From: an uncultured delta proteobacterium
Lineage (GTDB): Bacteria; Myxococcota_A; UBA9160
Direction: 5' to 3'
NCBI GenBank assembly: GCA_963773895.1
Contig: CAVZDA010000009.1
Location: 2,814,933-2,878,932 of the forward strand
DNA: 64,000 nucleotides
In this document: positions 37,462 to 54,656 of the stretch, one piece after another
How the letters are laid out: each line of letters begins with the position of its first letter
How positions within the stretch are numbered: position 1 is the first letter of the stretch
Program-made: the position numbers and the translations under genes
Notes under the pieces: model-generated
Told to the model about the DNA's origin: nothing
The model's database searches: none
What the model saw: the letters and a program-made list of their open reading frames with translations, nothing else

Positions 37462-38988
37462 TCAGCCGGTGAACGCCAGCCAGCGCCGGAACAGCGCCTT
37501 CACGAGCGGCGTGAGCCGCGTGCGGTTGTACTGGTCGCCGAGCTGGCGGATCGCCTCGGCCTGCGTGGGATACGGATGGATCACGTTCGCGAGGGCGCCC
37601 AGGCCGAGCTTCCCCGCCATCGCAACGCTCACCTCGGAGATCAGGTCGCCCGCGTGCCGCGCGACGATCGTCGCCCCCACGATCTGGTCGCTCCCCTTGC
37701 GCACCAGGAGCTTCACGAAGCCCTCCTCCTCGCCGTCGAGCAGCGCGCGGTCCACGTCGGCCAGCGGCCGCACGAAGCTCGCGACCTCGATCCCCCTCGC
37801 CTGCGCCTCGCGCTCGTAGAGCCCGACGTGGGCGATCTCCGGCTCGGTGTAGGTACACCACGGCATGGTCAGGCTCGAGAGGCTGGCGCGGCCGAGGGGG
37901 AAGAGCGCGTTCCGGATCACGATCCGCGCCGCGAAGTCGGCGGCGTGGGTGAACTTCCAGTCCATGCAGACGTCCCCCGCGGCGAAGATCGCCGGGTTGG
38001 TCGTCCGCAGGTGGTCATCCACGCGCACCCCGCGGCGGGCGTCGTGCGCGACGCCCGCCGCCTCGAGCCCGAGCCCGTCCACGTTCGGGATGCGGCCGGC
38101 GCCGACCAGGATCTCGTCGACCACGCACTCGCCGCCGCCCTCCGCGGCGGCGTAGGCGAGGCTCTTCTCGTCGCCCTTCCGCGCGACGCGCGAGAGCTGC
38201 GCGTTCAGCACGAGGCGGACGCCATCCCGCACGAGCGCGCGCTGCACGATCTCGGCCGCGTCGGCGTCCTCGCGGTCGAGGAGGTGGCCCCGGTCGTGGA
38301 ACAGCGTCACCTGCGAGCCGAGGCGCTGGAACGCCTGCGCGAGCTCGCAGCCGATCGGCCCTCCGCCGATCACCGCGAGGCGTCCCGGCCGCTCCGTGAG
38401 CGAGAACACCGTTTCGTTGGTCAGGAAGCCGGCCTCGGCGAGACCGGGCAGGGACGGATGCGCCGCGCGCGCGCCGGTCGCGATCACCGCGCGTCTGAAG
38501 CGCAGCTTCGCCCCGTCCACCTCGGCCGTGTCGCCCGAGAGGAAGCGCGCGTCGCCGAGGAAGACGTCGACCCCCAGCTCCTTCGTGAAGCGCTCGGCCG
38601 AGTCGTGCGGACTGATGTGCGCGCGGATCGCACGCATGCGCTCCATGGCGCGACCGAAGTCGATCGTCACGCCGGGCGGCACGCGGACGCCCAGTTCGCC
38701 CGCGTCCCGCACCTCCGCGGCCGTGCGCGCCGCGCGCAGCACGGCCTTCGACGGCACGCAGCCGACGTTCAGGCAGTCGCCTCCGAGGAAGGCGCGCTCG
38801 ACGAGGGCGACCCGCGCGCCGAGCCCCGCGGCGCCCGCGGCCGTGACGAGGCCCGCAGTGCCCGCGCCGATGACGACGAGGTGGTAGCGGGTCGCGGGCG
38901 TCGGGTTGCGCCAGTCGGGCGGCGCGACGTTCTCGAGCAGCTTGCGGTTGTGGCCGTCGAGCGGCTCGAGCGACGGGGCGTGTCGCAT
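37462..38988 (-). CDS. FAD-dependent pyridine nucleotide-disulfide oxidoreductase (dihydrolipoamide dehydrogenase / mercuric reductase family)
   Basis: VVIGAGTAGLVTA marks the FAD-binding fold. The redox-active GGDCLNVGCVPSK is present. A second GxGxxG (VIGGGPIGCELA) and a C-terminal dimerisation HPYPT motif follow. An ATG follows a GAGGAG RBS. Confidence 0.8.
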   Translation of the reverse strand: MRHAPSLEPLDGHNRKLLENVAPPDWRNPTPATRYHLVVIGAGTAGLVTAAGAAGLGARVALVERAFLGGDCLNVGCVPSKAVLRAARTAAEVRDAGELGVRVPPGVTIDFGRAMERMRAIRAHISPHDSAERFTKELGVDVFLGDARFLSGDTAEVDGAKLRFRRAVIATGARAAHPSLPGLAEAGFLTNETVFSLTERPGRLAVIGGGPIGCELAQAFQRLGSQVTLFHDRGHLLDREDADAAEIVQRALVRDGVRLVLNAQLSRVARKGDEKSLAYAAAEGGGECVVDEILVGAGRIPNVDGLGLEAAGVAHDARRGVRVDDHLRTTNPAIFAAGDVCMDWKFTHAADFAARIVIRNALFPLGRASLSSLTMPWCTYTEPEIAHVGLYEREAQARGIEVASFVRPLADVDRALLDGEEEGFVKLLVRKGSDQIVGATIVARHAGDLISEVSVAMAGKLGLGALANVIHPYPTQAEAIRQLGDQYNRTRLTPLVKALFRRWLAFTG

Positions 38989-39043
38989 GCGTCTCCTCGG
39001 CGGGGGCACCCGCCCTCGATTCGATGCCGCCGCGCGGCGCAGG

Positions 39044-41776
39044 TCACCGCCCGGGCAGGGAGCAGGTGCCCGTGCGGGCGTGCGCGGCGTCCTCGAGGCA
39101 GCGCACGACGAGCGCGGTCCAGCCGGTCTGGTGGTTCGCACCGAGACCGCGGCCCTCGTCGCCGTGGAAGTACTCGTGGAAGAGGTGCAGACCCTGCCAG
39201 CGCGGATCGTCGCGGAAGCGCCAGCCCGCGCCCCGATACGGCTGGACGCCGGCGGCGTCCGGCAGGAAGATCGACGAGAGCCGCCGCGCGAGCTCGTGCG
39301 CGACCTCGCCGAGGTTCCGCAGCGTGCCCGATCCGACCGGACACTCGACGCGGAAGTCGTCCCCGTAGAAGTGGTGGTAGCGCTCCAGCGCCTCGATCAG
39401 GAGGTAGTTGAGCGGGAACCACACGGGTCCGCGCCAATTCGAGTTCCCGCCGAAGGACGCGGTACGGGACTCCGCCGGCGCGTAGTCGATGCGGAACTCC
39501 TGTCCGCGCGCCCGGAAGACGTACGGCTGCGTCACGTGCACGCGCGAGAGCGACCGGATGCCGTGGGGCGAGAGGAACTCCTCGGGGTCGAGCAGGTAGC
39601 GCAGCATCCGCGTCAGGCGCTCGCGCGTGGGGATCGCGAGCAGGCGGTGCGGTACGCCGTTGCCGTCCTCGTCCTTCGTCTCGAGATAGGAGAGCGTGCG
39701 TGCGAGGTCCTTCCGGTTCTCGAGGAACCACTCCATGCGCTTCCGGAAGCCGGGCAGGGCGTCGAGCACCGTGTCCTCGAGCACGGAGACGGCGATCAGC
39801 GGGACGATCCCCACGAGCGAGCGCACGCGCAGCTGCACCGGCGCCCCGCCGTCCACCACGAGGTGGTCGTAGTAGAACCCGTCCTCCTCGTTCCACAGGC
39901 CGGTGCCGCCGAGGTGGTTCATCGCGTCGCAGATCCCGATGAAGTGCTCGAAGAATTTCGAGGCGAGGTCCTCGCAGGCCGGATCCTCCTTCGAGAGCTC
40001 GATCGCCATCGCGAGCATCGTGATGCAGTAGAAGGCCATCCACGCCGTTCCGTCGGCCTGCTCGAGCACGACGCCGGAGAGGACCGGCTGGGAGCGGTCG
40101 AACACGCCGATGTTGTCGAGACCGAGGAAGCCGCCGGCGAAGAGGCCCTTGCCGCGCGGGTCCTTGCGGTTCACCCACCACGTGAAGCTCAGGAGGTGCT
40201 TCTGGAAGCAGCGCGAGAGGAACACGCGGTCCCGCTTCCCGCGCTCTCCCGTGAGCTTGTACACGCGCCACGCCGCCCACGCGCCCACGGGAGGGTTCAC
40301 GTCGTCGAACGAGAACTCGTACGCCGGAAGCTGACCCTTCGGGTGCATGTACCACTCGCGCAGGAAGAGCACGAGCTGCTCCTTCGCGAACTCAGGGTCG
40401 ATCCGCGCGAAGGGGATCATGTGGAAGGCATGGTCCCACGCCGCGTACCATGGGTACTCCCACTTGTCGGGCATCGAGATCACGTCGCGGTTGTAGAGGT
40501 GCTCCCAGTCCGTGTTGCGCACCAGGCGGCGCTCGGGCGGCGGCTGCGGCTGCGACGGGTCGCCGTCGAGCCAGGCCTTCACGTCGTAGTGGTAGAACTG
40601 CTTCGTCCACAGGAGTCCCGCGTACGCCTGACGCGTCACCGCGCGCTCCGCCGGATCGAGCTCGATCGCGATGCGGGCGTCGTAGAACGCGTCTGCTTCC
40701 CGGATCCGGCGCTCGAAGATCGCGTCGAACTCGGGGCCGAACGGACGGAGCGGCGACTGGGAGGCGGCGTGGAGCCGGAGCTTCACCACCTCTCGGGCTC
40801 CCGGTGCGAGCGCGAGCGTGTAGTGCGCCGCCGCCTTCGTGCCGACCGGCTCCGGGCTCACCGCGTCCGCGCGTCCGCCGACGACGCGCTCGTGGAAGGC
40901 GTCCTTCACGAACGGGCTCGCGTTCGGGAACTGGAAGAGCCGTGCCGCGTTCGTCTCGTTCTCCGTGAAGTAGAGCGGCGGGGGCGCGCCGGCGGCGGGC
41001 GGATGCAGCTCGAGCCGGTACGCGCCGAGCGACGTGTGCTCCGCGAGGATCGTCTGGTCCCGCACGCGCGAGAGGCGGGGCTTCGGCCAGTAGCCCTCGC
41101 CGGCGCGTCCCCACGACCACGTGTTGCGGAACCAGAGCGTCGGCAGGAGATGGAGCGTCTCGGGCGTGGGCCCCTGGTTCGTCACCGTGATCCGGATCGC
41201 GAGGTCGTCGGTGTCGTCCTTCGCGTACTCGACCAGCACGTCGAAGAACCGGCCGTCGTCCAGCAGGCCGGTGTCCTCGAGCTCGAACTCCGGGTCGTCC
41301 CGTGTGCGGCTGCGGTTCTCCTCCGCCAGCCGCGCGTACGGGAACTCCGCCGTCGGGTAGCGGTAGAGCCCCTTGAGATAGGAGTGGGTCGGCGTCGCGT
41401 CGAGATAGAACCAACACTCCTTCGCGTCTTCGCCGTGGTTGCCCTCCCCGTTGGTGAGACCGAAGAGGCGTTCCTTCAGGATCGGATCCCGTCCGTTCCA
41501 GAGCGCGATCGAGAAGCAGAGGCGCCCCTCGCGGTCGCAGATGCCGAGGAGGCCGTCCTCGCCCCAGCGGTACGCGCGGCTGCGCGCGTGGTCGTGGGGG
41601 AAGTACTCCCAGGCCGTGCCGCCCGGCGAGTAGTCCTCGCGGACCGTTCCCCACTGACGCTCGGAGAGGTAGGGACCCCAGCGCTTCCAGTTCCTGGTGC
41701 GCCGGGCGTCCTCGCGCAGTCGCAGGGACTCCGGGTCGCTCTCCCTCGGCAAGTACACCCCGCTTTCGCGGGCCAT
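39044..41776 (-). CDS. Glycoside hydrolase family 63-like enzyme (MGH/GgH-like glucosidase)
   Basis: The N-terminus RNWKRWGPYLSERQWGTVREDYS...HDHARSRAYRWGEDGLLG is typical of bacterial GH63. The C-terminal region is an (alpha/alpha)6 barrel. The product is 910 aa. Confidence 0.7.
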   Translation of the reverse strand: MARESGVYLPRESDPESLRLREDARRTRNWKRWGPYLSERQWGTVREDYSPGGTAWEYFPHDHARSRAYRWGEDGLLGICDREGRLCFSIALWNGRDPILKERLFGLTNGEGNHGEDAKECWFYLDATPTHSYLKGLYRYPTAEFPYARLAEENRSRTRDDPEFELEDTGLLDDGRFFDVLVEYAKDDTDDLAIRITVTNQGPTPETLHLLPTLWFRNTWSWGRAGEGYWPKPRLSRVRDQTILAEHTSLGAYRLELHPPAAGAPPPLYFTENETNAARLFQFPNASPFVKDAFHERVVGGRADAVSPEPVGTKAAAHYTLALAPGAREVVKLRLHAASQSPLRPFGPEFDAIFERRIREADAFYDARIAIELDPAERAVTRQAYAGLLWTKQFYHYDVKAWLDGDPSQPQPPPERRLVRNTDWEHLYNRDVISMPDKWEYPWYAAWDHAFHMIPFARIDPEFAKEQLVLFLREWYMHPKGQLPAYEFSFDDVNPPVGAWAAWRVYKLTGERGKRDRVFLSRCFQKHLLSFTWWVNRKDPRGKGLFAGGFLGLDNIGVFDRSQPVLSGVVLEQADGTAWMAFYCITMLAMAIELSKEDPACEDLASKFFEHFIGICDAMNHLGGTGLWNEEDGFYYDHLVVDGGAPVQLRVRSLVGIVPLIAVSVLEDTVLDALPGFRKRMEWFLENRKDLARTLSYLETKDEDGNGVPHRLLAIPTRERLTRMLRYLLDPEEFLSPHGIRSLSRVHVTQPYVFRARGQEFRIDYAPAESRTASFGGNSNWRGPVWFPLNYLLIEALERYHHFYGDDFRVECPVGSGTLRNLGEVAHELARRLSSIFLPDAAGVQPYRGAGWRFRDDPRWQGLHLFHEYFHGDEGRGLGANHQTGWTALVVRCLEDAAHARTGTCSLPGR

Positions 41777-41777
41777 C

Positions 41778-43718
41778 CTACGCGGCGCCGGCAGGCTCCG
41801 CGAGCACGACGTGGACGAGGCGCAGCAGCTCGCCCACGGACCAGGCCTGGAACGGGCAGCCGCCCGGCTCCTGCGGCAGGTCGCCGTCTGCGACCTCGGA
41901 CACGTGGCCGAGGCCCGCATCGTCGAGATGCGCCGTGAGCGGCGCGACGAACCGTTCGCGCGCCTCGCGCCTCGCGTCGCTCCCCCCGCCGTGGACGCGC
42001 ACCCACGCCTCGACGAACGGCCCGAGCAGCCACGGCCACGCCGTGCCCTGGTGGTAGGCCTCGTCGCGTTCGCGCGGTCCGCCGCGATAGCGCCCGCGGT
42101 AGCCGGGCCCGTCGGGAGCGAGGCTGCGCAGGCCGAGAGGCGTCCACAGCCGGCCTTCGACGACGTCCACCACGCGCCGCGCGCGCGCGGCTTCGAGCAC
42201 CGGGAAGGGGAGGCCGCCCACCGCGAGGATCTGGTTCGGGCGGAGCGTCCCGTCGGCGGCTCCGGCCCGATGATCCGGGTCGACGACGTCGTGGAGACAG
42301 CCGCGCTGCTCGTTCCAGAAGCGCGCCGCGAAGGAGGCCTGTGCGCGCTCCTTCAGCTCGCGCCAGCGCGGATCGAGCGTGCTGCCGATCGCGAGCGCGT
42401 TGATCCACAGCGCCTGCACCTCGACCGGCTTGCCGATCCGCGGGGTCACCACGTGGTCACCGATCTTCGCGTCCATCCAGGTGAGCTGGACGCCCGGCTC
42501 TCCCGCGGCGAGCAGCCCGTCCGCGTCGCCGCGGATGCCGTGCCGCGTGCCCTTGGCGTAGCCCTCGAGGATCGCGAGCACCGCGGCCTCGAGCCGGGAG
42601 CGGTCGCGTGCGGAGATGCGCCGGCGCGCGGCAGCGAGGGCGGCGAGCGTCTCGTGCACCGCGACGACGTACCAGAGCGACGCATCCACGGCGTTGAACT
42701 CGGGCGTGCTCCCCGCGTCGGCGAACCGGTTCGGGAGCATGCCCTCGGAGACGGCGCCCGACCATTCGAGGAGGATGTCCTTCGCGGCGTCGATGCGCCC
42801 GGTCGCGAGACAGAGTCCGCGCAGGGCGATGAAGGCGTCACGGCCCCAGTCGGTGAACCACGGGTAGCCGGCGATGATCGTCGTGCCCGCGCCGCGCTTC
42901 GCGAGGTAGGCGTCGGCGGCCCGGTGCAGCGGCGTCGCGAAGCGCGCCCTTCGCCGCCGCTCGGACGCCCGCAGCAGCTCGGCCGCCTCGCGTGCGCCGG
43001 CGGCCGCGCCGAGGACGGCGGCCTCGTGGCCCTCCGTCGCGAGCACGAGCACCGCGGGACCCGATGCGAGGTCGAACCGGAAGACGCCCGGTGACGCGAG
43101 GTCCTCGCTGCAGTCGAGGCCGCGGTCACGCTCCGCGGTGTAGAGGAAGTTCCGCCACCAGTCCGGCGCGTGCTCGTAGCCGCCGCTCGCGCACGCCACC
43201 ACGCCGGGCACGCCGGGGTACGGGCGGAACACGAGGCGGCCGTCGTTCCGGTGGGGCTCGAACCGGAAGGCCGGATTCTCGTGGTGCGTCGAGTGGTAGT
43301 CACGCCCCGAGAGGAAGGGGCGCACGCGCAGGACGCCGGCCCTGCCGGCCACGCGGCGCCACACCAGGACGACGGCGGACGCCCCGTGCGGAACGAAGAG
43401 CTCGTGCTCGATGCGCGTGCCCTCGGGAAGGGCGAAGGTCCAGTGCGGCCAGGGCTCGGAGTCGAACGCGGCGATGTGGCCCGCGCCGTCGGGGGCGATC
43501 ACGTCGCCGCCGTAGCGCTGGGACGAGAGCGCGTGGCTGCCGCCTGGACCGTCGACGAACGCGTCGAGCCCGTTGACGAGCACCATCCGGCCGGCGGGCG
43601 GCTGCGTCGCCGCGAGGAGCAGCGCGTGATAGCGCCGCGTGCGCAGACCCGATGCCGTGGCAGAGGCGAAGCCGCCGAGCCCGTCGGTCTCGATCCACTC
43701 GCGGCGGTCGTCAGGCAC
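41778..43718 (-). CDS. Glycogen-debranching-enzyme-like protein (GDE_N_bis + amylo-alpha-1,6-glucosidase GDE_C)
   Basis: The GTG start overlaps the last codons of the DedA gene. The N-terminus REWIETDGLGGFASATASG and the segment GYPWFTDWGRDAFIAL match the GDE family. Confidence 0.7.
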   Translation of the reverse strand: MPDDRREWIETDGLGGFASATASGLRTRRYHALLLAATQPPAGRMVLVNGLDAFVDGPGGSHALSSQRYGGDVIAPDGAGHIAAFDSEPWPHWTFALPEGTRIEHELFVPHGASAVVLVWRRVAGRAGVLRVRPFLSGRDYHSTHHENPAFRFEPHRNDGRLVFRPYPGVPGVVACASGGYEHAPDWWRNFLYTAERDRGLDCSEDLASPGVFRFDLASGPAVLVLATEGHEAAVLGAAAGAREAAELLRASERRRRARFATPLHRAADAYLAKRGAGTTIIAGYPWFTDWGRDAFIALRGLCLATGRIDAAKDILLEWSGAVSEGMLPNRFADAGSTPEFNAVDASLWYVVAVHETLAALAAARRRISARDRSRLEAAVLAILEGYAKGTRHGIRGDADGLLAAGEPGVQLTWMDAKIGDHVVTPRIGKPVEVQALWINALAIGSTLDPRWRELKERAQASFAARFWNEQRGCLHDVVDPDHRAGAADGTLRPNQILAVGGLPFPVLEAARARRVVDVVEGRLWTPLGLRSLAPDGPGYRGRYRGGPRERDEAYHQGTAWPWLLGPFVEAWVRVHGGGSDARREARERFVAPLTAHLDDAGLGHVSEVADGDLPQEPGGCPFQAWSVGELLRLVHVVLAEPAGAA

Positions 43719-44451
43719 GTTCGCCCGTGGCTTCGGCCAGCGCGCGCCGCGCGAGGCGCGTGACGAGCGTCGTGACGACGATCGTGGCGACGAGCCCGAG
43801 CCCGAGCAGCGCCCAGTCGGCGACCCCCTTCTCGCGCCCCGCGCCGCCGGCGACGGCCGCGGCGAGGCCGAGCACCTGCCCGTAGTAGACGTACAGGAAC
43901 GTGCCGGGGAGCATGCCCGCCGACGCCACGAGGTAGTCGCCGAAGCGCACCCGCGTGAGCCCGAGCGCATAGTTGAGCAGGGTGAACGGGAACGCGGGCG
44001 AGAGCCGGAGCAGGAACACGATCCTGCGTCCCTGCTCCTCGACCGCGCGGTCGATCGCGGCGAAGCGCGGGTTGCCGGCGATCCGGCGCTCGACGGCGCC
44101 GCGCGCGAGGTAGCGCGCGACGAGGAAGGCCAGCCCGGCGCCGAGCGTGGCGGCGAGGAGCACGAGCGCGACGCCCTTCCACAGGCCGAAGATGGCGCCC
44201 GCGCCGAGCGTCAGGATGGAGGCGGGCACGAAGGCCACGACGGCGAGCGCGTAACCCACCACGAAGACGACCGGGCCGAGGGGGCCGAGCGATCCGACCC
44301 AGGCCGCGAACCGCGGGACCTGGCCGCCCGCGGCCCGGCCCAGCAGGACGAGCAGCGCGAGCGCGACCGCAGCGACTCCGATGCGGGCCCAGGAGACGCC
44401 GCGGCTCTCGGGCGCGGGAGCGGACGTCATGTGGAGCTCCCCCTGGGCCAT
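43711..44451 (-). CDS. DedA/TVP38-family membrane protein
   Basis: Polytopic TM helices are present with the DedA core (FLLRLSPAFPFTLLNYALGLTRV). Confidence 0.8.
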   Translation of the reverse strand: MAQGELHMTSAPAPESRGVSWARIGVAAVALALLVLLGRAAGGQVPRFAAWVGSLGPLGPVVFVVGYALAVVAFVPASILTLGAGAIFGLWKGVALVLLAATLGAGLAFLVARYLARGAVERRIAGNPRFAAIDRAVEEQGRRIVFLLRLSPAFPFTLLNYALGLTRVRFGDYLVASAGMLPGTFLYVYYGQVLGLAAAVAGGAGREKGVADWALLGLGLVATIVVTTLVTRLARRALAEATGERA

Positions 44452-44605
44452 CGCTCGCTCCCGTCTCGTTCCGTCGTCACGAGATGGATGCCGCGGACGG
44501 CCTCTGGTGACGCGAGTCTACGCGACCCACGACGTTTCCGAGCGCGTGTGCGATCTTCGCGGGGCTCCGCGCCGCTCCCACCGCAGATGCGAAGGAGGAT
44601 CCCCG

Positions 44606-45418
44606 ATGGCCGAGCCCAGCCTGTCGTCCAGCCCCGGTCCGCGCCGCCGCGCGCTCGTGACCGGCGCGTCCTCCGGCATCGGCGAGGCGTTCGCCGAGCG
44701 GCTGGCGCGCGACCAGTACGACCTGATCCTCGTCGCGCGGACGCGCGAGCGGCTCGACGCGGTCGCGAAGCGCCTCGTCGAGAGCCGCGGCATCGGCGTC
44801 GAGGTGCACCCGGCGGACCTCGGCAGGGCCGAAGAGCTGCGCACCGTCGAGGAGCGGCTCGCGTCGGACCCCACCCTCGATCTGCTCGTGAACAACGCCG
44901 GCTTCGGCAACTACGGCACGGTCGCGGAGATCGACCCGGACCGGCTCGAGGCCGAGATCCTGCTGAACGTCGTCGCGCTGGTGCGTCTCACGCGCGCGGC
45001 GCTGCCCCCGATGATCCAGCGCGCCTCGGGCGCGATCATCAACGTGTCGTCGATGGCCGGGCTCCAGCCGACGCCGTTCAACGCGAACTACGGCGCCACC
45101 AAGTCCTTCGTCAACAGCTTCACCGAGGCGATCCACGAGGAGGTGCGGGGGACGGGCGTGCGGATGCAGGTGCTCCAGCCGGGCTTCACCCGCACCGAGT
45201 TCCAGGCGCGCGCGGGCATGGAGACGTCCGCCATCCCGGACGCCGCCTGGATGGACGCGGGAGAGGTCGTGGAGGCGTCGCTGGCCGCCCTGGCCCGCGG
45301 CGATCTCGTGTGCGTGCCGGGCGGGGTGAACAAGGCCGTGGCGGCGTTCGCGTCCGCGCTGCCGCGCGCGCTCATGCGGCGCGTCACCGGCGCGGCGGCG
45401 CGTCGCTTCGGTCACTGA
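44606..45418 (+). CDS. Short-chain dehydrogenase/reductase (SDR)
   Basis: TGASSGIG, NNAG and the catalytic YGATK are all present. Confidence 0.85.
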   Translation: MAEPSLSSSPGPRRRALVTGASSGIGEAFAERLARDQYDLILVARTRERLDAVAKRLVESRGIGVEVHPADLGRAEELRTVEERLASDPTLDLLVNNAGFGNYGTVAEIDPDRLEAEILLNVVALVRLTRAALPPMIQRASGAIINVSSMAGLQPTPFNANYGATKSFVNSFTEAIHEEVRGTGVRMQVLQPGFTRTEFQARAGMETSAIPDAAWMDAGEVVEASLAALARGDLVCVPGGVNKAVAAFASALPRALMRRVTGAAARRFGH

Positions 45419-46286
45419 GGCCTCCGGCGAGCCGGACCAGGAGACCCGCCGCGAGCCACGCTTCCAGGAAGGCGGCCGCGCACGGGGCCGCCTCCGCGTC
45501 GCCCACGCTTCCGGCGATCCGCTCGCACAACGCGCCGAAGGGCTCGCCCCGCTGAACCGCAGCGAGCGCGTCGGCCTCGAGGGCCGAGATCGCGCGGTAG
45601 CGCACGCGCTCCTCGTTCCGCCATACACGAATGTGAGTCGATTCCGGCCCGAGGACGGGCGGACCGGCCCAGACGGCGTCGTCCTCATCGCCGTCGTAGC
45701 GCTCGCGGACCGCGTGCACCGGCCAGGCGAGGCCGAGGAGCGAGAGCGACGGCGTCGCCTCGAAGCGGAGCTCGCCCCAGGCATCATGAGGCACGGCCGC
45801 GAGCGTCTCGCGCTCGAGCACCGGAGCGTCCGCGGCGTCGAACGCTTCGAGGACCGCCCACTCGAGGCGCGCGAGGTCGGCCGCGTAGGCGCAGCGGCGG
45901 CCGAAGATCGAGGCGAAGGGAGCGGTGTCCAGGTGCTCCGCGAGCCGGGCGCCCGCGTGGCGCAGGGAGGGCCGCGTCGGCGGGTGCGCCATCAGGTACG
46001 TCTTCACGAGATCGTGGAATGCGTCGGGTCCGAGCGCGCGCGCGAGGGCGCCGAAGTCGTCTCGCAGGCAATCGTGGATCCGCACGAAGTACGCGTTCGC
46101 GTAGACGGCGACGCGCTCCCCGGGCGCGAGCCCGCGATCGCCGCGCAGCAGCGTCGCGAGCGCCGCGCCGGAGGCGTCGCCCTCGGCCGCGAGCGCGGCC
46201 TGCACGCCTTCAGGCCCGGTGATCAGCCGCCAGAGCCGGCGCTGCACCGCGCCCAGCGAGCCGGGCTCCGCCGTCGCTTCCTTCAC
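45384..46286 (-). CDS. DUF2063-family protein (MbnC/BufC-like partner of the DUF692 enzyme)
   Basis: It lies downstream of, and overlapping, the DUF692 gene. The N-terminal LQRRLWRLI helix is conserved in DUF2063. The start (ATG 46286, with GTG 46247 or 46205 possible) overlaps the upstream gene. Confidence 0.6.
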   Translation of the reverse strand: MKEATAEPGSLGAVQRRLWRLITGPEGVQAALAAEGDASGAALATLLRGDRGLAPGERVAVYANAYFVRIHDCLRDDFGALARALGPDAFHDLVKTYLMAHPPTRPSLRHAGARLAEHLDTAPFASIFGRRCAYAADLARLEWAVLEAFDAADAPVLERETLAAVPHDAWGELRFEATPSLSLLGLAWPVHAVRERYDGDEDDAVWAGPPVLGPESTHIRVWRNEERVRYRAISALEADALAAVQRGEPFGALCERIAGSVGDAEAAPCAAAFLEAWLAAGLLVRLAGGLSDRSDAPPRR

Positions 46287-47157
46287 GCGTCTCCTCCGCC
46301 GTCACCCGCCGCAGGATCTCCCGCGCGCGCGCGGCCTCCGCCACCAGCGTCTCGAGCTCGGGGATCTCGTCGTCCCACTCGATCAGCGTCGAGACCGGCC
46401 CGAGCCGAAGGATCGTCGCCTCGTAGAGCGACCACACTTCGTCGCGTACGGGATGGTCGTGGGTGTCGATGAGGAGCGGGCCCTCCTGGCGGTGGCCCGC
46501 GAGATGGATCTGGAACACGCGATCGCCCGGGATCGCTCCGAGGTAGCGCAGCGGGTCGAAGCCGTGGTTGTGCGCGCTGACGAAGACGTTGTTCACGTCG
46601 AGGAGGATCCCGCAGTCCGCGGCCTCGGCAACGCGCGTCAGGAACTCCCACTCCGGCATCGCGTCCGCCCGATAGGCGAAGTAGGAGGACACGTTCTCGA
46701 GCGCGATGCGCCGGCCGAGCCGGTCCTGCACCTCGCGCACGCGTACGGCGACGTGGCGGAGCGCCGCTTCGGTGTAGGGGAGCGGCACGAGGTCGTGCAG
46801 GTTCCGGCCGGCGATGCCGGTCCAGCACAGATGGTCCGAAAGCCAGGCCGGCTCGAAGCGCCCTGCGAGCGCGGCGAGGTCGCCGAGATAGAGTCCGTCG
46901 AGCGGATCGTCCGAGCCCACGTTGAGCGACACGCCGTGCAGCACGAGCGGGAAGCGCGCACGCACCTCCGCGAGCACGCGCGGGGGCCGGCCTCCCGGCA
47001 CCAGAAAGTTCTCGGAGATCGCCTCGAAGAAGTCGACGCCGAGCTCCCCGGCCTCCGACTCGAGGATCCGGGGATAGTGCTTCGGGCGCAGGCCCACCCC
47101 GACGCCCAGGAAGGGCGCGTCGCCCGGACGCGCTCGCGTTGAAGTCGGAGCCTGCAT
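46210..47157 (-). CDS. DUF692/UPF0276-family TIM-barrel protein (MbnB/BufB-like RiPP-modifying enzyme)
   Basis: LGVGVGLRPKHY, FFEAISENF, HGVSLNVGS and a HLAGH-type metal-binding motif are present, typical of MbnB-like di/tri-iron enzymes. Confidence 0.75.
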   Translation of the reverse strand: MQAPTSTRARPGDAPFLGVGVGLRPKHYPRILESEAGELGVDFFEAISENFLVPGGRPPRVLAEVRARFPLVLHGVSLNVGSDDPLDGLYLGDLAALAGRFEPAWLSDHLCWTGIAGRNLHDLVPLPYTEAALRHVAVRVREVQDRLGRRIALENVSSYFAYRADAMPEWEFLTRVAEAADCGILLDVNNVFVSAHNHGFDPLRYLGAIPGDRVFQIHLAGHRQEGPLLIDTHDHPVRDEVWSLYEATILRLGPVSTLIEWDDEIPELETLVAEAARAREILRRVTAEETREGSDGGARLAGRGAAPALAADHRA

Positions 47158-47206
47158 TGCGCGACGCGGTGTGGGCGGGCCGCGGGACGCGGCCCGCCCG
47201 CGTCCG

Positions 47207-47464
47207 CTAGCTCTTCTTCGCCTTGGCCGCCTTGGCGGCGTCGCACTCGGCCTGGGTCAGGTTCTTGAAGCCGTGGCCGCCGCAGCCGTTCTTCCCGGCG
47301 CAGCTGTTCGAGGCCGACTTGCAGTCGCTTTGGCCCTTGCACGAGTTCACGCCCTCGCACTTCACCTTCGCGTCCTTGTCCGTATCCGCCGCGAAGGCGC
47401 TGTGCGCCCCCGCGACGAACAGACCTGCGACGGCGGACGCCAAGGCGACGTTCTTCCAGCTCAT
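47207..47464 (-). CDS. Bufferin-like RiPP precursor (DUF2282-like): a small secreted Cys-rich peptide
   Basis: An ATG follows a GGAGGA RBS. The signal peptide is [26 protein letters not shown] 60-aa core with 6 Cys follows ([29 protein letters not shown]...AECD). The NSCAG and KCEG blocks resemble the DUF2282 consensus. It lies immediately upstream of the DUF692/DUF2063 pair. Confidence 0.6.
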
Positions 47465-47528
47465 TCGGATCCTCCAATGGCCTCTCGCTGGAGGCCGGCC
47501 ATTTCGATGCCGCTCGCCCGGGGTGGTT

Positions 47529-47860
47529 TCAGCCTGCTCCAGGCCCCGGGTCCGCGCTCCCCTGCCCGACGAGGATGCGCCGGATTGCGGCCGTGCGGTA
47601 GCGGAAGATGCGGTCCAGCTCCCGCTGTACGAGGGGCCGCACGAGCTCACCGAGGGGCGGAAGCGGAAGGGCCCAGCGCACCTCGTCGGCGGGTAGTCGA
47701 TCCGCGCGCCCTCGCGCAGGTCGAGCGGGAGCGGCGTCAGGATGCGGAAGCGCAGCTCGGGCGGCGTGATGCGCTCGAGGTTCGCGGCATCGGCGAAGAA
47801 CGCGAACACGTCCTTGCGCGGCAGCGGCAGCTCGAGCCGCGCGCGGAGCACGTGCTCCAC
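47529..47860 (-). pseudogene. SRPBCC-family (polyketide cyclase/dehydrase-like) gene remnant with an internal deletion and frameshift
   Basis: One frame gives the N-terminal part [56 protein letters not shown]. The C-terminal part [31 protein letters not shown] is in a different frame, and about 50 codons are missing between them. The total length is not a multiple of three. Confidence 0.4.
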
Positions 47861-47868
47861 CTCGCGCC

Positions 47869-49278
47869 TCAGCGGCCGCGCGCACGCGCCCGTGCGGCCT
47901 CGTAGCGGCGGAGCGCGAGGATGCGCCGCTCCGGGTGGCTCACGATCGGCTCCGGATAGGACTTCGGCGGACGTGCGGCCTCCCACGGCGCGTGCACGAA
48001 ACGGTCCTCCACCCCCGCGAGCTCTGGGACGAAGCGGCGCACGAAGGCGCCTTCGGGATCGAACCGGGCGCCCTGCGACACCGGGTTGAAGATCCTGAAG
48101 TAGGGCTGCGCGTCCGTCCCGGTGGACGCCGCCCACTGCCAGCCGCCGTTGTTGCTCGCCGGTTCGCCGTCGACGAGCCGCCGGAAGAAGAAGTCCTCGC
48201 CGAGCCGCCAGTCGAGGAGGAGGTCCTTCGTGAGGAAGCTGGCGACGATCATGCGCAGGCGGTTGTGCATCCAGCCGGTCGTCGCGAGCTGACGCATCGC
48301 CGCGTCGACGATGGGGTAGCCCGTGCGGCCCTCGCGCCACGCCGCGAACCCTTCCGGATCTTCGTTCCACTGGAGCGTCTCGAGCTCGCGCCGATACGGT
48401 GCGCGCTGCACGCGCGGGTGCTCCGCGAGGACGGCGTGATAGAAGTCGCGCCACACGAGCTCGTCGATCCACTTGCGCGCGCCCTCGGCCGCCGACCGGT
48501 CGTCGCGCGCGCAGGCCTGAGCTGCGGCGACGCAGATGCGGACCGAGATCGCGCCGAACCTCAGGTACGGCGAGAGACGCGACGTGCCGTCGACCGCCGG
48601 GACGTCGCGGTCCCGCGCGTATGCCCGGACCGGGCCCGAGAGGAACCGCGCGAGGCGCCCGCGCGCCGCCTCCTCGCCAGCGGGCGGGAGCTCGGTGTCG
48701 TCGCCTCCGAAGCCGAGGGCCTTCGCGTCGGGGAGGCCGTCCGACGGCAGATCCGCGACGGGCGGGGGGAGGCGCGATACGCCGGCCGGCCGCTGCGGCT
48801 CGCTGGCGAGGCGCCGGTGCCACGCGTTGCGGTAGGGCGTGTAGACGGCGTAGGGGCCGCCCGCGGCCGAGCGGACCTCGGTGCTCTCGAAGATCACGTG
48901 GTCGCGGCAGTCGGCGACGCGCCTGCCCGCGCGTTCGAGCGCGGCGCGCACTCGGGCATCGCGCCGCCGTCCGAGCGGCGTGTCGCTGCGGTTCCACGTC
49001 ACGAGGCCCGCATGGGCTTCGGCCGCGAGCTGCGGGATCTCGGCTGCCGGGTCGCCGCGGCGCAGCACGAGCTTCGACCCGCGGCGTGCGAGCGCCTCGT
49101 CGAGCCGGGCGAGGCCGTCGAGCAGGAACCGCACGCGCGGAGCGCCGGTCCGCGGGCTCGCGAGGATCGCGTCGTCGAGCACGAACACGGGGACCAGCGC
49201 GTCCGCGCCGGCCGCCCGGGCGAGCGCGGTGTTGTCCTCGAGGCGCAGGTCGTTGCGGAACCAGTGCAGCGCGCGCAT
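47869..49278 (-). CDS. phr: Deoxyribodipyrimidine photolyase
   Basis: The N-terminal photolyase domain ([13 protein letters not shown]) is present. The FAD-binding domain carries WREFYY-like, GWMHNRLRM and [11 protein letters not shown] motifs. Confidence 0.9.
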
Positions 49279-49691
49279 CAGACCGCCGTCGAGCGTCCTT
49301 CCTTCGGAACGGCGCAGGTCCCGTGGGCGCACCCACCTTCGACCGCTCCCTCCCGGCCCGTCCAGCGGAGGCGGTTCCGCGCGAAGGTGCGATAGGCGGC
49401 GTCGAAGATCGGACGGAGGACGGGCCAGCGCGTCGGCGCCACGAGCCAGCCGAGGCCCACCGCGCCGTAGAGGCGCCGGAAGACCTCGACGCCCTCGATC
49501 CGCGCGCCGTCCGGGAGGACGCCGTGGATGCGCGCCATCAGCTCGGCGTGCGCGACGCCGTAGCGGGTCGCGTCGAAGCCGGGCGCCGCGATGTCCTCGA
49601 AGTCGATCCGGCCCCGCCCCCGATCGAGCCGGCGGAGCGTCGCGATCTCGCGCGCGCACAGCGGGCAGTCCCCGTCGTAGAGGACGCGCAC
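49278..49691 (-). CDS. DCC-family thiol-disulfide oxidoreductase (DUF393)
   Basis: The [10 protein letters not shown] motif lies near the N-terminus. The GTG start was chosen because the upstream 49 codons look non-coding. It overlaps the photolyase start. Confidence 0.6.
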
Positions 49692-49759
49692 GAGCCAGGT
49701 CGGGGCGGGCGTCGTCGGCCCCGTTTGCGTGTGGAGGCTCCTTCCGTCCTGCACGGCGT

Positions 49760-50632
49760 TCAGACCGCCGCCGACAGGCTGCGCGAGGCGCCGCGCAAGT
49801 GCTCGGCGAGCCGCTGGAGCTCGCGCATCGAGCGACACCAGGAGGTGGCGCCGAGCTCGCCGACCAGCTCCGGACGCATCCCGCGGCCGCCGAGGATCAG
49901 CGCGGAGCCTGCCTCGCGGACGGCCTCCGCGAGCCGCGCGCGCAGGGCGGCCGGGCTGGCCGCCGAAGGCGGGATCGAGAGCGAGAGCGCCACGAGAGCG
50001 GGAGCGTCGCGCTCCACCGCGTTCCCGAGCGAGTCGAGCGGGGTGTCCGCGCCGAAGTTCACGGCGCGATAGCCGACCTCGCAGAGCGTCAGCTCGGCGC
50101 AGAGGCCGGCGAGCACGTACGGGTCGCCGGACAGTCCCGCCACGAACGCGAGCGGCCGGTCCGAGCCGGGTCCGTAGGTGCGGAGCAGCGCGTGCAGCGC
50201 GCGGATCGCGATCGCGGTCGCGGAGTGCTCGCGCGTCACCGGGATCTCACCGGCCTCCCACCCGTGCCCGATGGACTCCATCGCGGGAGCGATCCAATCG
50301 TCGGCGAGCTCCGCAGCGCTCATCCCTCCGGCGTAGACCCGCTCGAGCAGCGAAATCGCCGCGTGCGGCCGTCCCTGAGCCAGCAGGTCGCGCAGGGCCG
50401 CGGGCGTCGCTTCGCCGCCGAGGAGGAGCCCGAGGGCGATCGGGTCGACCAGGGTCAGGCCCGCCTCCCGGACGTACCCGAGGGCCGCGTGCAGCGGGAT
50501 GCGGCGATGCCCGCCCGGGGTCTTCCGGGCCGGAACCCGACCCTGGTCGATCCACCGCTTCACGGTCGACTCCCCGAGCCCGAGAGCGCGCGCGAGCTGG
50601 AGCGGCGAGACGTACTTCTCCGAGTCGGTCAA
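49760..50632 (-). CDS. HTH (excisionase/MerR-like) transcriptional regulator with a C-terminal B12-binding-like Rossmann domain (CarH/LitR-like)
   Basis: The N-terminal HTH is [21 protein letters not shown]. The C-terminal domain has B12-binding-domain topology ([21 protein letters not shown]...LVALSLSI...LILGG). DPY replaces the canonical DxHxxG His ligand. Confidence 0.5.
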
Positions 50633-50740
50633 AAGAGCCCTTGCCTCCGAGGAACGAACCGGACCTTAGGGGGTGATCTGAAATCGTCAAGAATTTCGGC
50701 GAGATCACGCCAGCGCTCTCGGCCTCCTCCATACCGTCAG

Positions 50741-50793
50741 TTGACACCGCCGCGGAATCCGGGATGATTGTGAACGTTTTGAACGATTAATCG
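50741..50793 (+). promoter_or_regulatory. Divergent promoter/operator region: a -35-like TTGACA plus TGAACG direct repeats and a CGATTAATCG palindrome
   Basis: This is an unusually AT-rich intergenic stretch between the regulator at 49760..50632 and the sigma-factor gene. A perfect 10-bp palindrome lies at 50784..50793. Confidence 0.3.
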
Positions 50794-50813
50794 AATCGAG
50801 GGGACTCCAGAAG

Positions 50814-52241
50814 ATGAGCGACGACCCCCAACACGATGCCGCCTCGAGCCCGACCGATGAGTTCGCTCCTCGCCGCCCGGACGCGGGCCTCGGCCTCGAC
50901 TCGGCGGCGCTGCTGCGCCGCTACCTGCGCGAGATCGCGCCGCTGCCCACGTTGACGCGCGACCAGGAGGGAGCGCTCGCGCGCGCGCTCGAGCGCGAGA
51001 CGGCGGCGTGGGCCGCGGCGGTGCGCGCGATTCCGTTCGCTGCGCGGTTCGTGGTGGAGCGGTGGCGCAGGATCCGCGACGAGGCGCGGGTGACGGCCAC
51101 GCTCTCCGCGCTCCACCGCGACGGGAGCGGGCAGGACTACAGCGGGCGGATCGACGCGGCCCTCGCGCGGGTCGAGCGCGCACTCCGGCGATTCGACGCC
51201 GCGGCCGCCGGGACCGGGGCCGCCCCGGCTGGACCTCGGCTGCTGGCGCTTCGCCGGTCGCTCGCCCGCTCGCTCGCCGCGGCGGACGTGTCGCTCGAGA
51301 TCGCGCGCGAGGCGCACGTCGAGCTCTGCCGCCGGGTCGCGGAGCTGGAGGGCGCGCGCGCGTCCGCACTGCGCGCCGCCCTCGAGCGCGAGGCGGGCCT
51401 TTCCGTCCGCGAGCTGAGGCCGGCGGTGCGCGAGCTGGACGCGCTCCACGCGGCGCTATCGCGCACCAAGAACACGTTCGTGCGTCACAACCTGAAGCTC
51501 GTCGTCGCCGTGGCCAAGGACTTCCGCGGCATGGGCATCTCGTTCCTCGACCTGATCCAGGAGGGGAACCTCGGCCTCATCCGCGCGGTGGAGAAGTTCG
51601 ATCATCGCCGTGGCTTCAAGTTCTCCACCTACGCAGTCTGGTGGATCCGTCAGTCGTTCATCCGGGTGGTGCAGAACCACTCGCGGACCGTGCGGCTCCC
51701 CTCCCACGTCTACGACCTCATGCTCCGCTACGAGCGCGCGAACCGGAGCCTCGCCCGCAGGTTCGGCCGCGATCCGTCGCCGACCGAGCTGCGCGAGGCG
51801 CTCGGGATCGACTCCGAGGAGATGGACCTGCTGCTCGAGGTCCGGCAGAAGACGATCTCGATGGAGGCACTGGTGCCCGGCACGGAGTCGAAGCGCGTGA
51901 AGGACGCGTTGCCCGACCCGCGCGCCGACCGCCCGGGCCTCGCCCTCGATGGAGTGAAGCTGCAGCGGGAGCTGGAGGCGCTCCTCGGGGGGCTCGACAC
52001 GCGGGAGCAGAAGGTCCTCATCTGGCGCTTCGGGCTGCGCGGCGAGGAGGACCACACCCTCCAGGAGATCGGCGAGAAGCTCGGGATCTCCCGGGAGCGC
52101 GTCCGCCAGATCGAGGCCGGCGCGCTCTCGAAGCTGCGCCCCACGGTCGCCCAGCTCGGGCTCCGCACGCTGGTCGAGGCGCCGGACCACGAGCCGGGCG
52201 TCACCGGGACGCGTTACGCGGCCACGGCAGGGCACGCGTGA
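50814..52241 (+). CDS. RNA polymerase sigma-70 family factor (RpoD-like, regions 1.2 to 4)
   Basis: Region 2 reads [40 protein letters not shown]. Regions 3 and 4 are present, with the 4.2 HTH ([20 protein letters not shown]). Confidence 0.85.
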
Positions 52242-52273
52242 GCGCCCCCGGCCGGTCGGACGGTTCACTGGCT

Positions 52274-53338
52274 ATGCTGGAGGGCGTGAGCGTGCCCCGG
52301 AGGTTGCCGGCGGAGCGCGCGGCCACGTGGGGCCGCCGCGTGCTGACCATCTCCGGTGTGACGCTCGCCTGGCTCGCCGTGCTCGGCTCGCTCCCCATGC
52401 TGCTTCCGCTGGCGGCGCTCCACGACGTCCTGCGACGCACGCGCTTCACCGCGTCGCGCGTGGCGCTGTTCGTCGCGCTCTTCCTCACTTGCGAGGCGGT
52501 CGGCCTCGCCGCCGCGAGCTTCCTCTTCCTGTACGAAGCGCTCGCGCGCCCCGTGGGCCGCGCGCGCGCCCGCGCGGACGATCGCTTCCATGCGCTCGAG
52601 CGGCGCTGGGCGGAGGCGATCTTCCGGGGCGCGCAGGCGATCTTCGGCTTCCGCGTCGTCCTGGAGCCGGGCAGCGACACGGGCCTCGGCCCGATGCTCG
52701 CGTTCGTGAGGCACGCGAGCATGGGCGACACCCTGCTCCCGGTGGTGCTGCTGACGCCGCGCGGTCTGCGACTCCGGTACGTGCTCAAGCACGAGCTCCG
52801 TTTCGACCCGTGCATGGACGTCGTGGGGCATCGGCTTCCCAACACGTTCGTGCGTCGGGGCTCGGGGGACGCTCCGCGCGAGATCGCGGACATCGCACGC
52901 CTCGCCGAGGGGCTGGGTCCGCGTGACGCCGTCGTGATCTACCCGGAGGGAACGCGGTTCACGCAGGCCAAGCGCGAGCGCGTCCTCGCCAAGCTCGAGG
53001 CGGCGGGCGACCCGGAGGCGGCTGCGCGCGCCCGCCGCCTGTCCAACGTCCTCCCGCCGCACCTCGGCGGTCCCCTCGGCCTGCTGGAGCGGAGCACGGC
53101 GGCGGACGTCGTGTTCCTGGCGCATGCGGGCTTCGAGGGCATCGCGACGTTCTGGGACCTCTGGGCCGGGGCGCTCGTGGGCGCGACGATCCGGGTCGGG
53201 ATGTGGCGCGTGCCGTTCGCGGAGATCCCCAAGGACCGGGAGGGCCGCATCGAGTGGCTCCACGCGAACTGGCGCCGGATGGACGCCTGGGTGGGCGCGC
53301 AGCATGCGGACCCGAAGGTCGGATGGCAGCCTTCCTGA
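52274..53338 (+). CDS. Lysophospholipid acyltransferase-like protein (PlsC/LPLAT family)
   Basis: The N-terminus has TM helices. HxxxxD (FVRHASMGDTLL) and IYPEGTR motifs are present. An alternative GTG start at 52238 is possible. Confidence 0.65.
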   Translation: MLEGVSVPRRLPAERAATWGRRVLTISGVTLAWLAVLGSLPMLLPLAALHDVLRRTRFTASRVALFVALFLTCEAVGLAAASFLFLYEALARPVGRARARADDRFHALERRWAEAIFRGAQAIFGFRVVLEPGSDTGLGPMLAFVRHASMGDTLLPVVLLTPRGLRLRYVLKHELRFDPCMDVVGHRLPNTFVRRGSGDAPREIADIARLAEGLGPRDAVVIYPEGTRFTQAKRERVLAKLEAAGDPEAAARARRLSNVLPPHLGGPLGLLERSTAADVVFLAHAGFEGIATFWDLWAGALVGATIRVGMWRVPFAEIPKDREGRIEWLHANWRRMDAWVGAQHADPKVGWQPS

Positions 53339-54114
53339 ACGTCCTGCCCGTCACGGCCGCGGCGCTCGTCGCCGGCTTCCTCGTGGTCTGGGCGATCTCG
53401 GTGGCGAGGCGAGACGCCAGCATCGTCGACATCCTGTGGGGTCTCGGCTTCGTCCTCGTCGCCGGCGCGGCCTTCGCGGCGGGCGGGCCCTCTACGCCGC
53501 GCGCCCGGCTCGCGCTGCTGCTCACCGGGCTCTGGGGCGTGCGTCTCGCCGGCTATCTCGCCTGGCGCAACCACGGCCAGGGCGAGGACTTCCGCTATCG
53601 CGCGATGCGCAAGCGTCACGGCGACCGGTTTCCAGTCGTGAGTCTCTACAGCGTGTTCGGGCTCCAGGCCGCGCTGTGCTGGCTGATCTCCTGGCCCGTC
53701 CAGGCCGCGATCGCGTCCCCCGGTCCGGCTGCTTGGACCGCGCTCGACGGGGTCGGCGTTGCGCTCTTCGTCGTGGGCTTCGTCTTCGAGAGCGTGGGTG
53801 ACCTGCAGCTCGCGCGCTTCAAGGCCGATCCCGCAAATCGCGGCCGCGTGATGGACCGGGGGCTCTGGGCGTGGACGCGCCATCCGAACTACTTCGGCGA
53901 CGCCGTCGTCTGGTGGGGGCTCTTCGCGCTCGCACTCTCGACGCCGGCGGGCTGGATCACGCTGCCCGCCCCGGCGCTGATGACCTTCCTGCTGCTCCGG
54001 GTATCCGGGGTGGCGCTCCTCGAGCGCTCGCTCCGGAAGACGCGACCGGGGTACGCGGACTACGTGGCGCGCACGAGCGCGTTCGTGCCGCTCCCGCCGC
54101 GCCGCCGGAGCTGA
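53323..54114 (+). CDS. DUF1295-family membrane protein (steroid 5-alpha-reductase / ICMT-like fold)
   Basis: It is polytopic and carries GLWAWTRHPNYFGD, the conserved C-terminal motif of the family. Confidence 0.6.
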   Translation: MAAFLNVLPVTAAALVAGFLVVWAISVARRDASIVDILWGLGFVLVAGAAFAAGGPSTPRARLALLLTGLWGVRLAGYLAWRNHGQGEDFRYRAMRKRHGDRFPVVSLYSVFGLQAALCWLISWPVQAAIASPGPAAWTALDGVGVALFVVGFVFESVGDLQLARFKADPANRGRVMDRGLWAWTRHPNYFGDAVVWWGLFALALSTPAGWITLPAPALMTFLLLRVSGVALLERSLRKTRPGYADYVARTSAFVPLPPRRRS

Positions 54115-54139
54115 AGGCCTTCGCTCGGGTGCCGGGGGC

Positions 54140-54634
54140 TCAGCCGTCGAACAGCTCTTCGAGCGCGGGCCAGTCGATCGCGCTCTGCGCGGCGAACGCG
54201 CGGAGGAGAAGCTCGCGATCGGAGGCGTCCTCGCCCTTCCGGAAGGTCGCCACGGCCTTCGCGAGCACGTCCGCCGGAGGCGACGCCGGCGCGTCCCCCT
54301 TCAATGCGCCGTCTTCGTGCTCGAGCCCGATGATGTCGAGCCACTCGATCAGGAGCGGCTTCTTGCACTGGAGGAAGTAGACGGCGAGCAGCTCCTCGGC
54401 GAGGTCGCTCGCCGCCACGCGGGACAGCGTGCGGCGCACGGCGTCGGCGCGCTTCTCGAACGGCTGGCGCATCAGGAAGACGGGCCGCGCGCGGAGGGCC
54501 GCGCTCGCGATCGCCACGGCCTGCACGAAGGCGCCCGGCGACGCGTCGGCGATCGCCTTCAGCACCTCGCGCGCCCGCTCGGGCGGAAGCGATGCGAACA
54601 CCTGGTACGAACGCATGGCGCCGTTGTCTAGCAC
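54140..54634 (-). CDS. Hypothetical protein
   Basis: A 164-aa ORF with coding-like composition. No recognisable motif was found. Confidence 0.4.
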   Translation of the reverse strand: MLDNGAMRSYQVFASLPPERAREVLKAIADASPGAFVQAVAIASAALRARPVFLMRQPFEKRADAVRRTLSRVAASDLAEELLAVYFLQCKKPLLIEWLDIIGLEHEDGALKGDAPASPPADVLAKAVATFRKGEDASDRELLLRAFAAQSAIDWPALEELFDG

Positions 54635-54656
54635 GGCGCCGCGGGTCCGTCGCGGT

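Follow-up and report, generated by a model that had tools for sequence, protein, structure and literature searches.

We examined a stretch of 64,000 nucleotides (the window; GC content about 72%) on contig CAVZDA010000009.1 of an uncultured delta proteobacterium assigned to Myxococcota_A (UBA9160), in which three genes at 45384-47464 on the minus strand encode a small Cys-rich precursor, an enzyme of the DUF692 family and a DUF2063 partner protein. The three genes are intact, co-directional and tightly packed, and each is present in a single copy in the window. Taken together they very probably form a Buf2-type bufferin biosynthetic gene cluster (bufA2-bufB-bufC) on a Myxococcota chromosome. 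A preliminary description, made from the sequence alone, had placed three packed minus-strand genes here and read them as a cluster for a bufferin-type ribosomally synthesised and post-translationally modified peptide (RiPP); we find the open reading frames (ORFs) at those same coordinates, with the BufA2 and BufB family models passed and the DUF2063 partner matched, so the reading is right in kind, but its novelty was overstated.

Two sets of related loci are used for comparison throughout. A scan of one genome per species gave 566 stretches encoding BufB relatives, from which the best 80 loci were kept, and the closest of these are Myxococcota metagenome-assembled genomes (MAGs) at 75-80% identity. 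Closer still is a set of metagenome contigs (L081 to L086) that encode an 87%-identical precursor and are collinear with window positions 38000-56000 at about 85% DNA identity.

The precursor, its maturase and the partner protein

In the 85-residue BufA2 precursor, residue 4 is Lys, a hydrophobic stretch reaches a maximum Kyte-Doolittle mean of 2.25 over 11 residues, and AFA occupies positions -3 to -1; there is no lipobox in the signal region, and from these features and the family model the protein would carry a Sec signal peptide cleaved by signal peptidase I. The mature core begins ADTDKD and holds six Cys at core positions 11, 17, 23, 30, 36 and 49. The length of the precursor, the signal ending in AFA, the 60-residue core and the quoted surroundings of the six Cys had all been described beforehand, and the sequence agrees with them exactly. 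GC content by codon position is 0.52/0.52/0.95, as expected of a real gene in a 72% GC genome. An antisense ORF on the plus strand (47211-47696), preferred by a crude gene caller based on third-position GC, is ruled out by the codon-position GC and by the hidden Markov model (HMM) match of the precursor. The Shine-Dalgarno sequence GGAGGA in front of bufA2 is also kept in L081, L082 and L086.

When the small ORF is compared to the BUF-family models, as the preliminary description had proposed, it passes the NCBIfam equivalog NF050166 (Cu_RiPP_BufA2) with 80.8 bits against a cutoff of 60, with residues 6-78 aligned to positions 2-75 of the 79 in the profile. The label "DUF2282-like", given to it earlier, does not stand: at E<=0.01 the precursor has no Pfam match, PF10048 (DUF2282) included. 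Judged by these profiles it is not a DUF2282 member, and it would belong instead to the separate BufA2 or Buf_6/12Cys family. The two families are nonetheless related, since some precursor homologues carry precomputed PF10048 matches. A protein search finds 310 precursor homologues at E<=1e-3, the best of them 87% identical, and the exact sequence has no match in a genome assembly collection that does not contain the organism of the window. An alignment of 89 sequences shows no variation at C36, C42, C48, C61 and C74 and a conservation of at least 90% at C55, and the spacing C-x5-C-x5-C-x6-C-x5-C-x12-C is the same in most precursors of the 80 loci. The window precursor is thus thoroughly typical of the BufA2 family.

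The second gene, which starts 49 nt after the precursor gene, encodes a multinuclear non-haem iron oxidase (MNIO). Its DUF692 membership had been claimed and a profile search suggested as a check, which gives 349.9 bits for PF05114; the protein also passes NF050167 (the MNIO_BufB equivalog) with 355 bits against a cutoff of 310, and fails the other MNIO equivalog models, namely HvfB (252 bits against 360), MbnB (61.5 against 325), ApyH and ChrH. BufB aligns with a solved DUF692 protein (PDB 3BWW) at E=2e-45, and TglH and MbnB are matched as well. Residues H74, H109, E154, D187, N190, H218, D231, H233 and E260 of BufB align with H54, H90, E133, D163, N166, H192, D208, H210 and E239 of MbnB, which we take to be the iron ligands in the MbnBC structures. 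All nine positions are conserved in the window protein.

The third gene encodes the DUF2063 partner, BufC, for which the family assignment and the accompanying profile check are likewise upheld (PF09836, 63.1 bits against a cutoff of 27.2). A search with the single sequence finds no PDB relative at E<0.1; a profile built from 28 BufC homologues matches the founding structure of the family, NGO1945 (PDB 3DEE), at E=4e-4, in an alignment that includes the C-terminal domain. These matches assign BufC the DUF2063/NGO1945 architecture. Its start codon was said to overlap bufB by up to 77 nt, which is what results from the GTG at 46286; an alternative GTG at 46247 leaves an overlap of 38 nt and corresponds to the start called for L081, the closest relative. 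Most of the family has an overlap of 4 nt. A sequencing error behind the long overlap is ruled out, as the overlap is 68 nt in L001, L002 and L035 and 38 nt in L081 to L085, and because relatives share it we regard it as a trait of the clade. In four MAG loci (L003, L007, L050 and L073) no stop interrupts the bufB frame for hundreds of nucleotides across bufC; in high-GC DNA this is probably a matter of chance, or else the result of a frameshift error, and it does not establish a BufB-BufC fusion.

The ratio of nonsynonymous to synonymous substitution rates (dN/dS), measured against L081, is 0.20-0.25 for the three genes (0.25 for bufA2), similar to that of the neighbouring photolyase gene phr (0.21) and an SDR gene (0.16). 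The three buf genes are therefore still under purifying selection.

Table 1. Features at and directly upstream of the buf cluster, with positions in the window.
Feature	Position	Strand	Remarks
bufC, DUF2063 partner	45384-46286	minus	300 aa from GTG 46286 or 287 aa from GTG 46247; PF09836
bufB, MNIO (DUF692) bufferin maturase	46210-47157	minus	315 aa; PF05114, NF050167
Extended stem-loop structure	47159-47207
GC-rich stem-loop just after the bufA2 stop	47173-47199	minus	12-bp perfect stem GGGCGGGCCGCG / CGCGGCCCGCCC, 3-nt loop, no T-run
bufA2, bufferin-2 precursor	47207-47464	minus	85 aa; NF050166 match, Cys conservation, codon-position GC
bufA2 stop codon	47207-47209	minus
bufA2 core	47210-47389	minus	60 aa
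bufA2 signal peptide (predicted)	47390-47464	minus	residues 1-25
Shine-Dalgarno GGAGGA	47470-47475	minus	5 nt before bufA2 ATG; read from sequence
SRPBCC (Polyketide_cyc) gene remnant	47529-47860	minus	148-nt internal deletion relative to L081
Co-directional carH-like/DCC1/photolyase string directly upstream of the buf genes	47869-50632	minus
phr, photolyase	47869-49278	minus	Pfam/NCBIfam matches
dcc, DCC1-like thiol-disulfide oxidoreductase	~49278-49754	minus	Pfam/NCBIfam matches
carH-like regulator	49760-50632	minus	Pfam/NCBIfam matches (HTH and B12-binding_2)

Agreement with the Caulobacter Buf2 system

The closest described counterpart is the buf2 cluster of Caulobacter vibrioides (CCNA_02999-03001), which encodes a Sec-exported precursor with a 61-residue core and six Cys, lacks a bufD1-like gene, and whose precursor falls into BUF_6/12Cys, the second-largest of the precursor clusters (PMC11626156; Leprevost et al.). 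The window cluster shares with it the order precursor, MNIO, DUF2063 (CCNA_03001-03000-02999), the predicted Sec signal, a six-Cys core of about 60 residues and the lack of DoxX, and its precursor and enzyme both score above the cutoffs of the NCBIfam equivalog models for the Buf2 family. The Caulobacter product is 18 Da lighter than the unmodified core, with a loss of 4.03 Da on each central Cys, while the outermost two Cys carry no modification and are likely bonded as a disulfide; expression is induced by copper, and BufB together with BufC suffices for the modification, DoxX being dispensable (PMC11626156). A survey of MNIO enzymes published in 2025 counts thousands of Buf1 and Buf2 precursors and finds six Cys in 90% of the Buf2 members (PMC12452194). 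Unlike the Caulobacter cluster, the one described here lies in Myxococcota, has the long overlap of bufB and bufC (38-77 nt), and stands directly downstream of a string of genes for a carH-like regulator and a photolyase.

The related loci give a similar picture. In most of the 80, bufB is directly preceded by a gene for a BufA2-type precursor and directly followed by one for a BufC homologue. Among the 55 loci with a same-strand ORF directly after bufC, that ORF encodes DoxX in four, and a separate phmmer search with one DoxX seed finds DoxX-like ORFs in Acidobacteriota (L052, L070 and L076) and Porticoccaceae (L018 and L019). In the window there is no DoxX among the neighbours scanned with Pfam, and an ad hoc DoxX HMM finds nothing in any six-frame ORF of the whole stretch, which bears out the absence remarked on earlier. 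Both features that were said to stand out, the six Cys and the missing DoxX gene, are therefore real; it is their unusual status that falls away, as both belong to the published description of Buf2. Since six Cys, a core of about 60 residues and no DoxX match the Caulobacter cluster, the window cluster is an ordinary case of Buf2, and these are normal features of that type and not peculiarities of 45384-47464.

Stem-loop, promoters and neighbouring genes

A GC-rich stem-loop stands just after the bufA2 stop codon (Table 1), with a minimum free energy of -42.8 kcal/mol (z = -3.6). In 69 loci we surveyed the 70 nt that follow the stop codon of the precursor gene, with 157 segments inside bufB as a control. 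A hairpin with z<-2 is present in 52 of the 69 loci compared to 5 of the 157 control segments, and a helix of 9 bp or more without interruption in 53 compared to 16. The position of these structures is constant and their sequences differ, across phyla and in about three quarters of the Buf2-type loci. Such structures after the precursor gene are common in RiPP operons. The stem-loop here probably stabilises or partly terminates the precursor transcript, which would raise the level of precursor mRNA or protein over that of the enzymes. Two published bufferin papers make no mention of it in their main text (PMC11626156, PMC12452194). A second candidate hairpin, just 5' of the bufA2 Shine-Dalgarno sequence, is not significant (z = -0.5), and scans for Rfam families and tRNAs give nothing near the cluster.

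The two closest genome relatives, L001 and L069, carry genes for an extracytoplasmic function (ECF) sigma factor and an NrsF anti-sigma factor (PF06532, 61 bits) directly before bufA2. The pair lies at 6252-7462 in L001 and at 6286-7448 in L069, and is also found at 1682-2862 on the reverse strand in L006, all of them Buf2-type clusters. According to the 2025 survey, sigma/NrsF genes accompany Buf1 clusters and not Buf2 clusters (PMC12452194), and these Myxococcota loci run counter to that statement. L001 and L069 also have, about 93 nt before the start codon of bufA2, the motif GTAACC-N16-CGTA, which matches the Caulobacter sigmaF motif GTAACC-N16-CGAA (PMC3511200). More generally, a GTAACC/GAAACC-N16-CG(T/A)A motif occurs 39-125 nt before the first precursor gene in 8 of the 69 loci, always with a 16-nt spacer, compared to about 1.2 of 69 expected from a background of 0.018 per 250 nt; seven are of Buf2 type (L001, L069, L007, L008, L026, L037 and L061) and one, L040, has a four-Cys precursor.

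Several observations on the window itself weigh against the Buf2 reading or against parts of it. No ECF sigma factor or NrsF is found in the window by tblastn with the L001 and L069 proteins as queries, no copper-homeostasis genes are present there, and a strict search for the sigmaF promoter with its N16 spacer finds nothing near bufA2; in lacking sigF/nrsF and the GTAACC-N16-CGAA motif the cluster differs further from that of Caulobacter. Because there are no local copper genes, no sigF/nrsF and no canonical sigmaF promoter, copper-responsive expression is unsupported at this locus. The C-terminal domain of BufC, which resembles a RiPP recognition element, scores 24.1 bits against NGO1945_C, below the cutoff of 27. 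An AlphaFold model of the precursor made with 89 homologues has a strand with Cys36 and a C-terminal helix with Cys74, which fits the published description, at a mean predicted local distance difference test score (pLDDT) of 57, a confidence low enough that the model would leave the fold and the disulfide geometry unsupported. Finally, the thiooxazole chemistry and the copper role of the cluster are predicted by homology, which counts against taking either as proven.

A string that looks like a relic sigmaF promoter, GAAACC-N18-CGAA at 47503-47530, is ruled out by its 18-nt spacer (16 nt elsewhere) and by its lack of conservation in the 85%-identical L081; we take it as a chance occurrence. 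The contigs L081 to L086, too, have no sigF/nrsF between the upstream genes and the buf genes, and as they share the gene order of the window, the sigma/NrsF pair is absent from the whole clade while the juxtaposition with the light-related genes is conserved. No terminator-like site is predicted in 45000-51000. Transcription of the buf genes could come from read-through of the upstream string, from an unrecognised promoter, or through a sigmaF whose gene is at another place in the genome.

The upstream string of carH-like, DCC1 and photolyase genes lies on the same strand directly before the cluster, so the cluster is indeed downstream of what had been described as a putative light-response module. 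On the other side are a convergent SDR gene and then VTT, glycogen-debranching and GH63 genes. The order carH-like, dcc, phr, SRPBCC, bufA2 is the same in L081 to L084, where the SRPBCC gene is intact (157-160 aa, with a PF03364 match). The window lacks 148 nt inside this gene: a collinear blastn match skips L081 positions 9624-9771 (gene at 9461-9934) at about 47690. What is left is the N-terminal 56 codons followed by a frameshift, after which the frame is free of stops into bufA2, with which it is in frame, and this gives rise to a 709-aa ORF at 47207-49336. The gene may truly be a pseudogene, or the deletion may come from an error of assembly.

The carH-like protein combines an HTH_17/MerR N-terminus with a B12-binding_2 domain and a Wx9EH motif, and scores 63 bits against a cutoff of 400 for the CarH equivalog. 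It has GDPYVLAG in place of the DxHxxG of cobalamin binders, with the lower His ligand seemingly missing, so that its role as a B12 photoreceptor is uncertain. A divergent unit on the plus strand (50814-54114), separated from the minus-strand string by an intergenic region of 181 nt, holds a gene for a 475-aa group-1-like sigma-70 factor and a DUF1295 gene; L081 has an acyltransferase gene between these two, where the window has an unannotated gap. The divergent arrangement of sigma-70/DUF1295 and carH-like/DCC1/photolyase genes is conserved in L081 and L083 and resembles known photo-oxidative stress gene sets. Further away, 9-15 kb from the cluster and with no evident link to the bufferin genes, are a gene for an EncFtn-like encapsulated ferritin (128.7 bits; 32422-32802, minus strand) and one for a zf-HC2 anti-sigma-like protein (36214-36531, plus strand).

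This neighbourhood bears on a reading that we consider unlikely, in which the cluster makes the same product under rewired control: sigmaF/NrsF would have been lost and the buf genes would be co-transcribed with the carH-like/photolyase string as part of a response to light or photo-oxidative stress. It would account for the ECF sigma, NrsF and GTAACC-N16-CGTA motif before bufA2 in L001 and L069 where the window and L081 to L086 have none, for the run of carH-like, dcc, phr, SRPBCC, bufA2, bufB and bufC genes on one strand in the window clade with gaps of at most 66 nt and no predicted terminator, and for the purifying selection that still acts on the buf genes. In Myxococcus xanthus the light-induced carQRS operon is also turned on in the dark by copper, by an unknown route, and its anti-sigma factor, CarR, belongs to the DUF1109/NrsF family (PMC8156234). 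However, adjacency alone is not co-transcription; among the 80 genome loci a photolyase lies within 8 kb of the cluster only in L069, which makes the link specific to a lineage; a promoter that escaped recognition could sit in the stem-loops or in a 64-nt gap; the genome may simply carry sigF/nrsF at another place; and the carH-like protein, with its altered cobalamin motif, may not be a B12 photoreceptor. If the reading were true, a light-driven bufferin would give a concrete molecular basis to the connection of copper and light responses in myxobacteria, which is known and unexplained.

The frameshifting 148-nt deletion in the SRPBCC gene directly upstream, and the lack of a local regulator or a recognisable promoter in the window, would also suit a decaying or silent remnant. 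This is very unlikely, as the three buf ORFs are intact and of lengths typical of the family, none of the six Cys or of the aligned iron-ligand positions is lost, dN/dS is low, and the strong Shine-Dalgarno sequence before bufA2 is kept.

Other MNIO systems and the proposed chemistry

The Buf2 assignment can also be set against the other systems built around an MNIO. With Buf1 (the 'gig' operons) the window cluster shares the pair of MNIO and DUF2063 proteins, a Cys-rich precursor exported by Sec and, as predicted here, thiooxazole chemistry and copper buffering; Buf1 precursors have four Cys, pass PF10048 and usually come with DoxX (bufD) and often with sigma/NrsF, whereas the window has six Cys, no PF10048 match and no DoxX. 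The HvfABC/oxazolin (Buf_EGKCG) systems of Haemophilus influenzae and relatives likewise combine an MNIO, a DUF2063-type partner and a signal-bearing Cys-rich substrate, with copper binding that would be common to both, and their substrates differ in having EGKCG repeats. The MNIO of methanobactin (MbnABC) shares the aligned iron-ligand positions, and Cys is converted to a copper-binding heterocycle or thioamide, to which the chemistry predicted here would be akin; MbnA is, however, a short leader-core peptide that lacks a Sec signal, MbnC does not belong to DUF2063 and the product is a secreted chalkophore. That the cluster should belong to one of these last two types is exceedingly improbable, since the matches that hint at it (BufB to HvfB and MbnB, BufC to HvfC at 53.7 bits) lie far below the cutoffs of 360, 325 and 142 while the BufB and BufA2 models are passed, and since the 85-aa window precursor has no EGKCG repeats and would, unlike MbnA, be exported by Sec.

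For the Buf2-type cluster that we favour, the steps of biosynthesis can be proposed by homology to the C. vibrioides buf2 system. BufA2 would be made with its Sec signal peptide, and in the cytoplasm BufB, acting with BufC, would oxidise core residues C17, C23, C30 and C36 to 5-thiooxazoles, each conversion with a loss of 4 Da. The precursor would then be exported by Sec and cleaved after AFA25, and a disulfide would join the first and last core Cys, C11 and C49. The mature 60-residue protein would be expected at about 6005.5 Da (6023.6 minus 18), and would be kept in the periplasm, where it may chelate excess copper through its thiooxazoles.

The cluster adds one further member, from a poorly sampled Myxococcota lineage, to a Buf2 family that already has thousands, and alone it matters little. 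Its modest value lies in the regulator genes found beside Buf2 clusters, in the stem-loop after the precursor gene and in the alternative regulatory context. A clade in which the sigma/NrsF pair is replaced by a juxtaposition with light-related genes offers a handle on the control of bufferins outside the Alphaproteobacteria.

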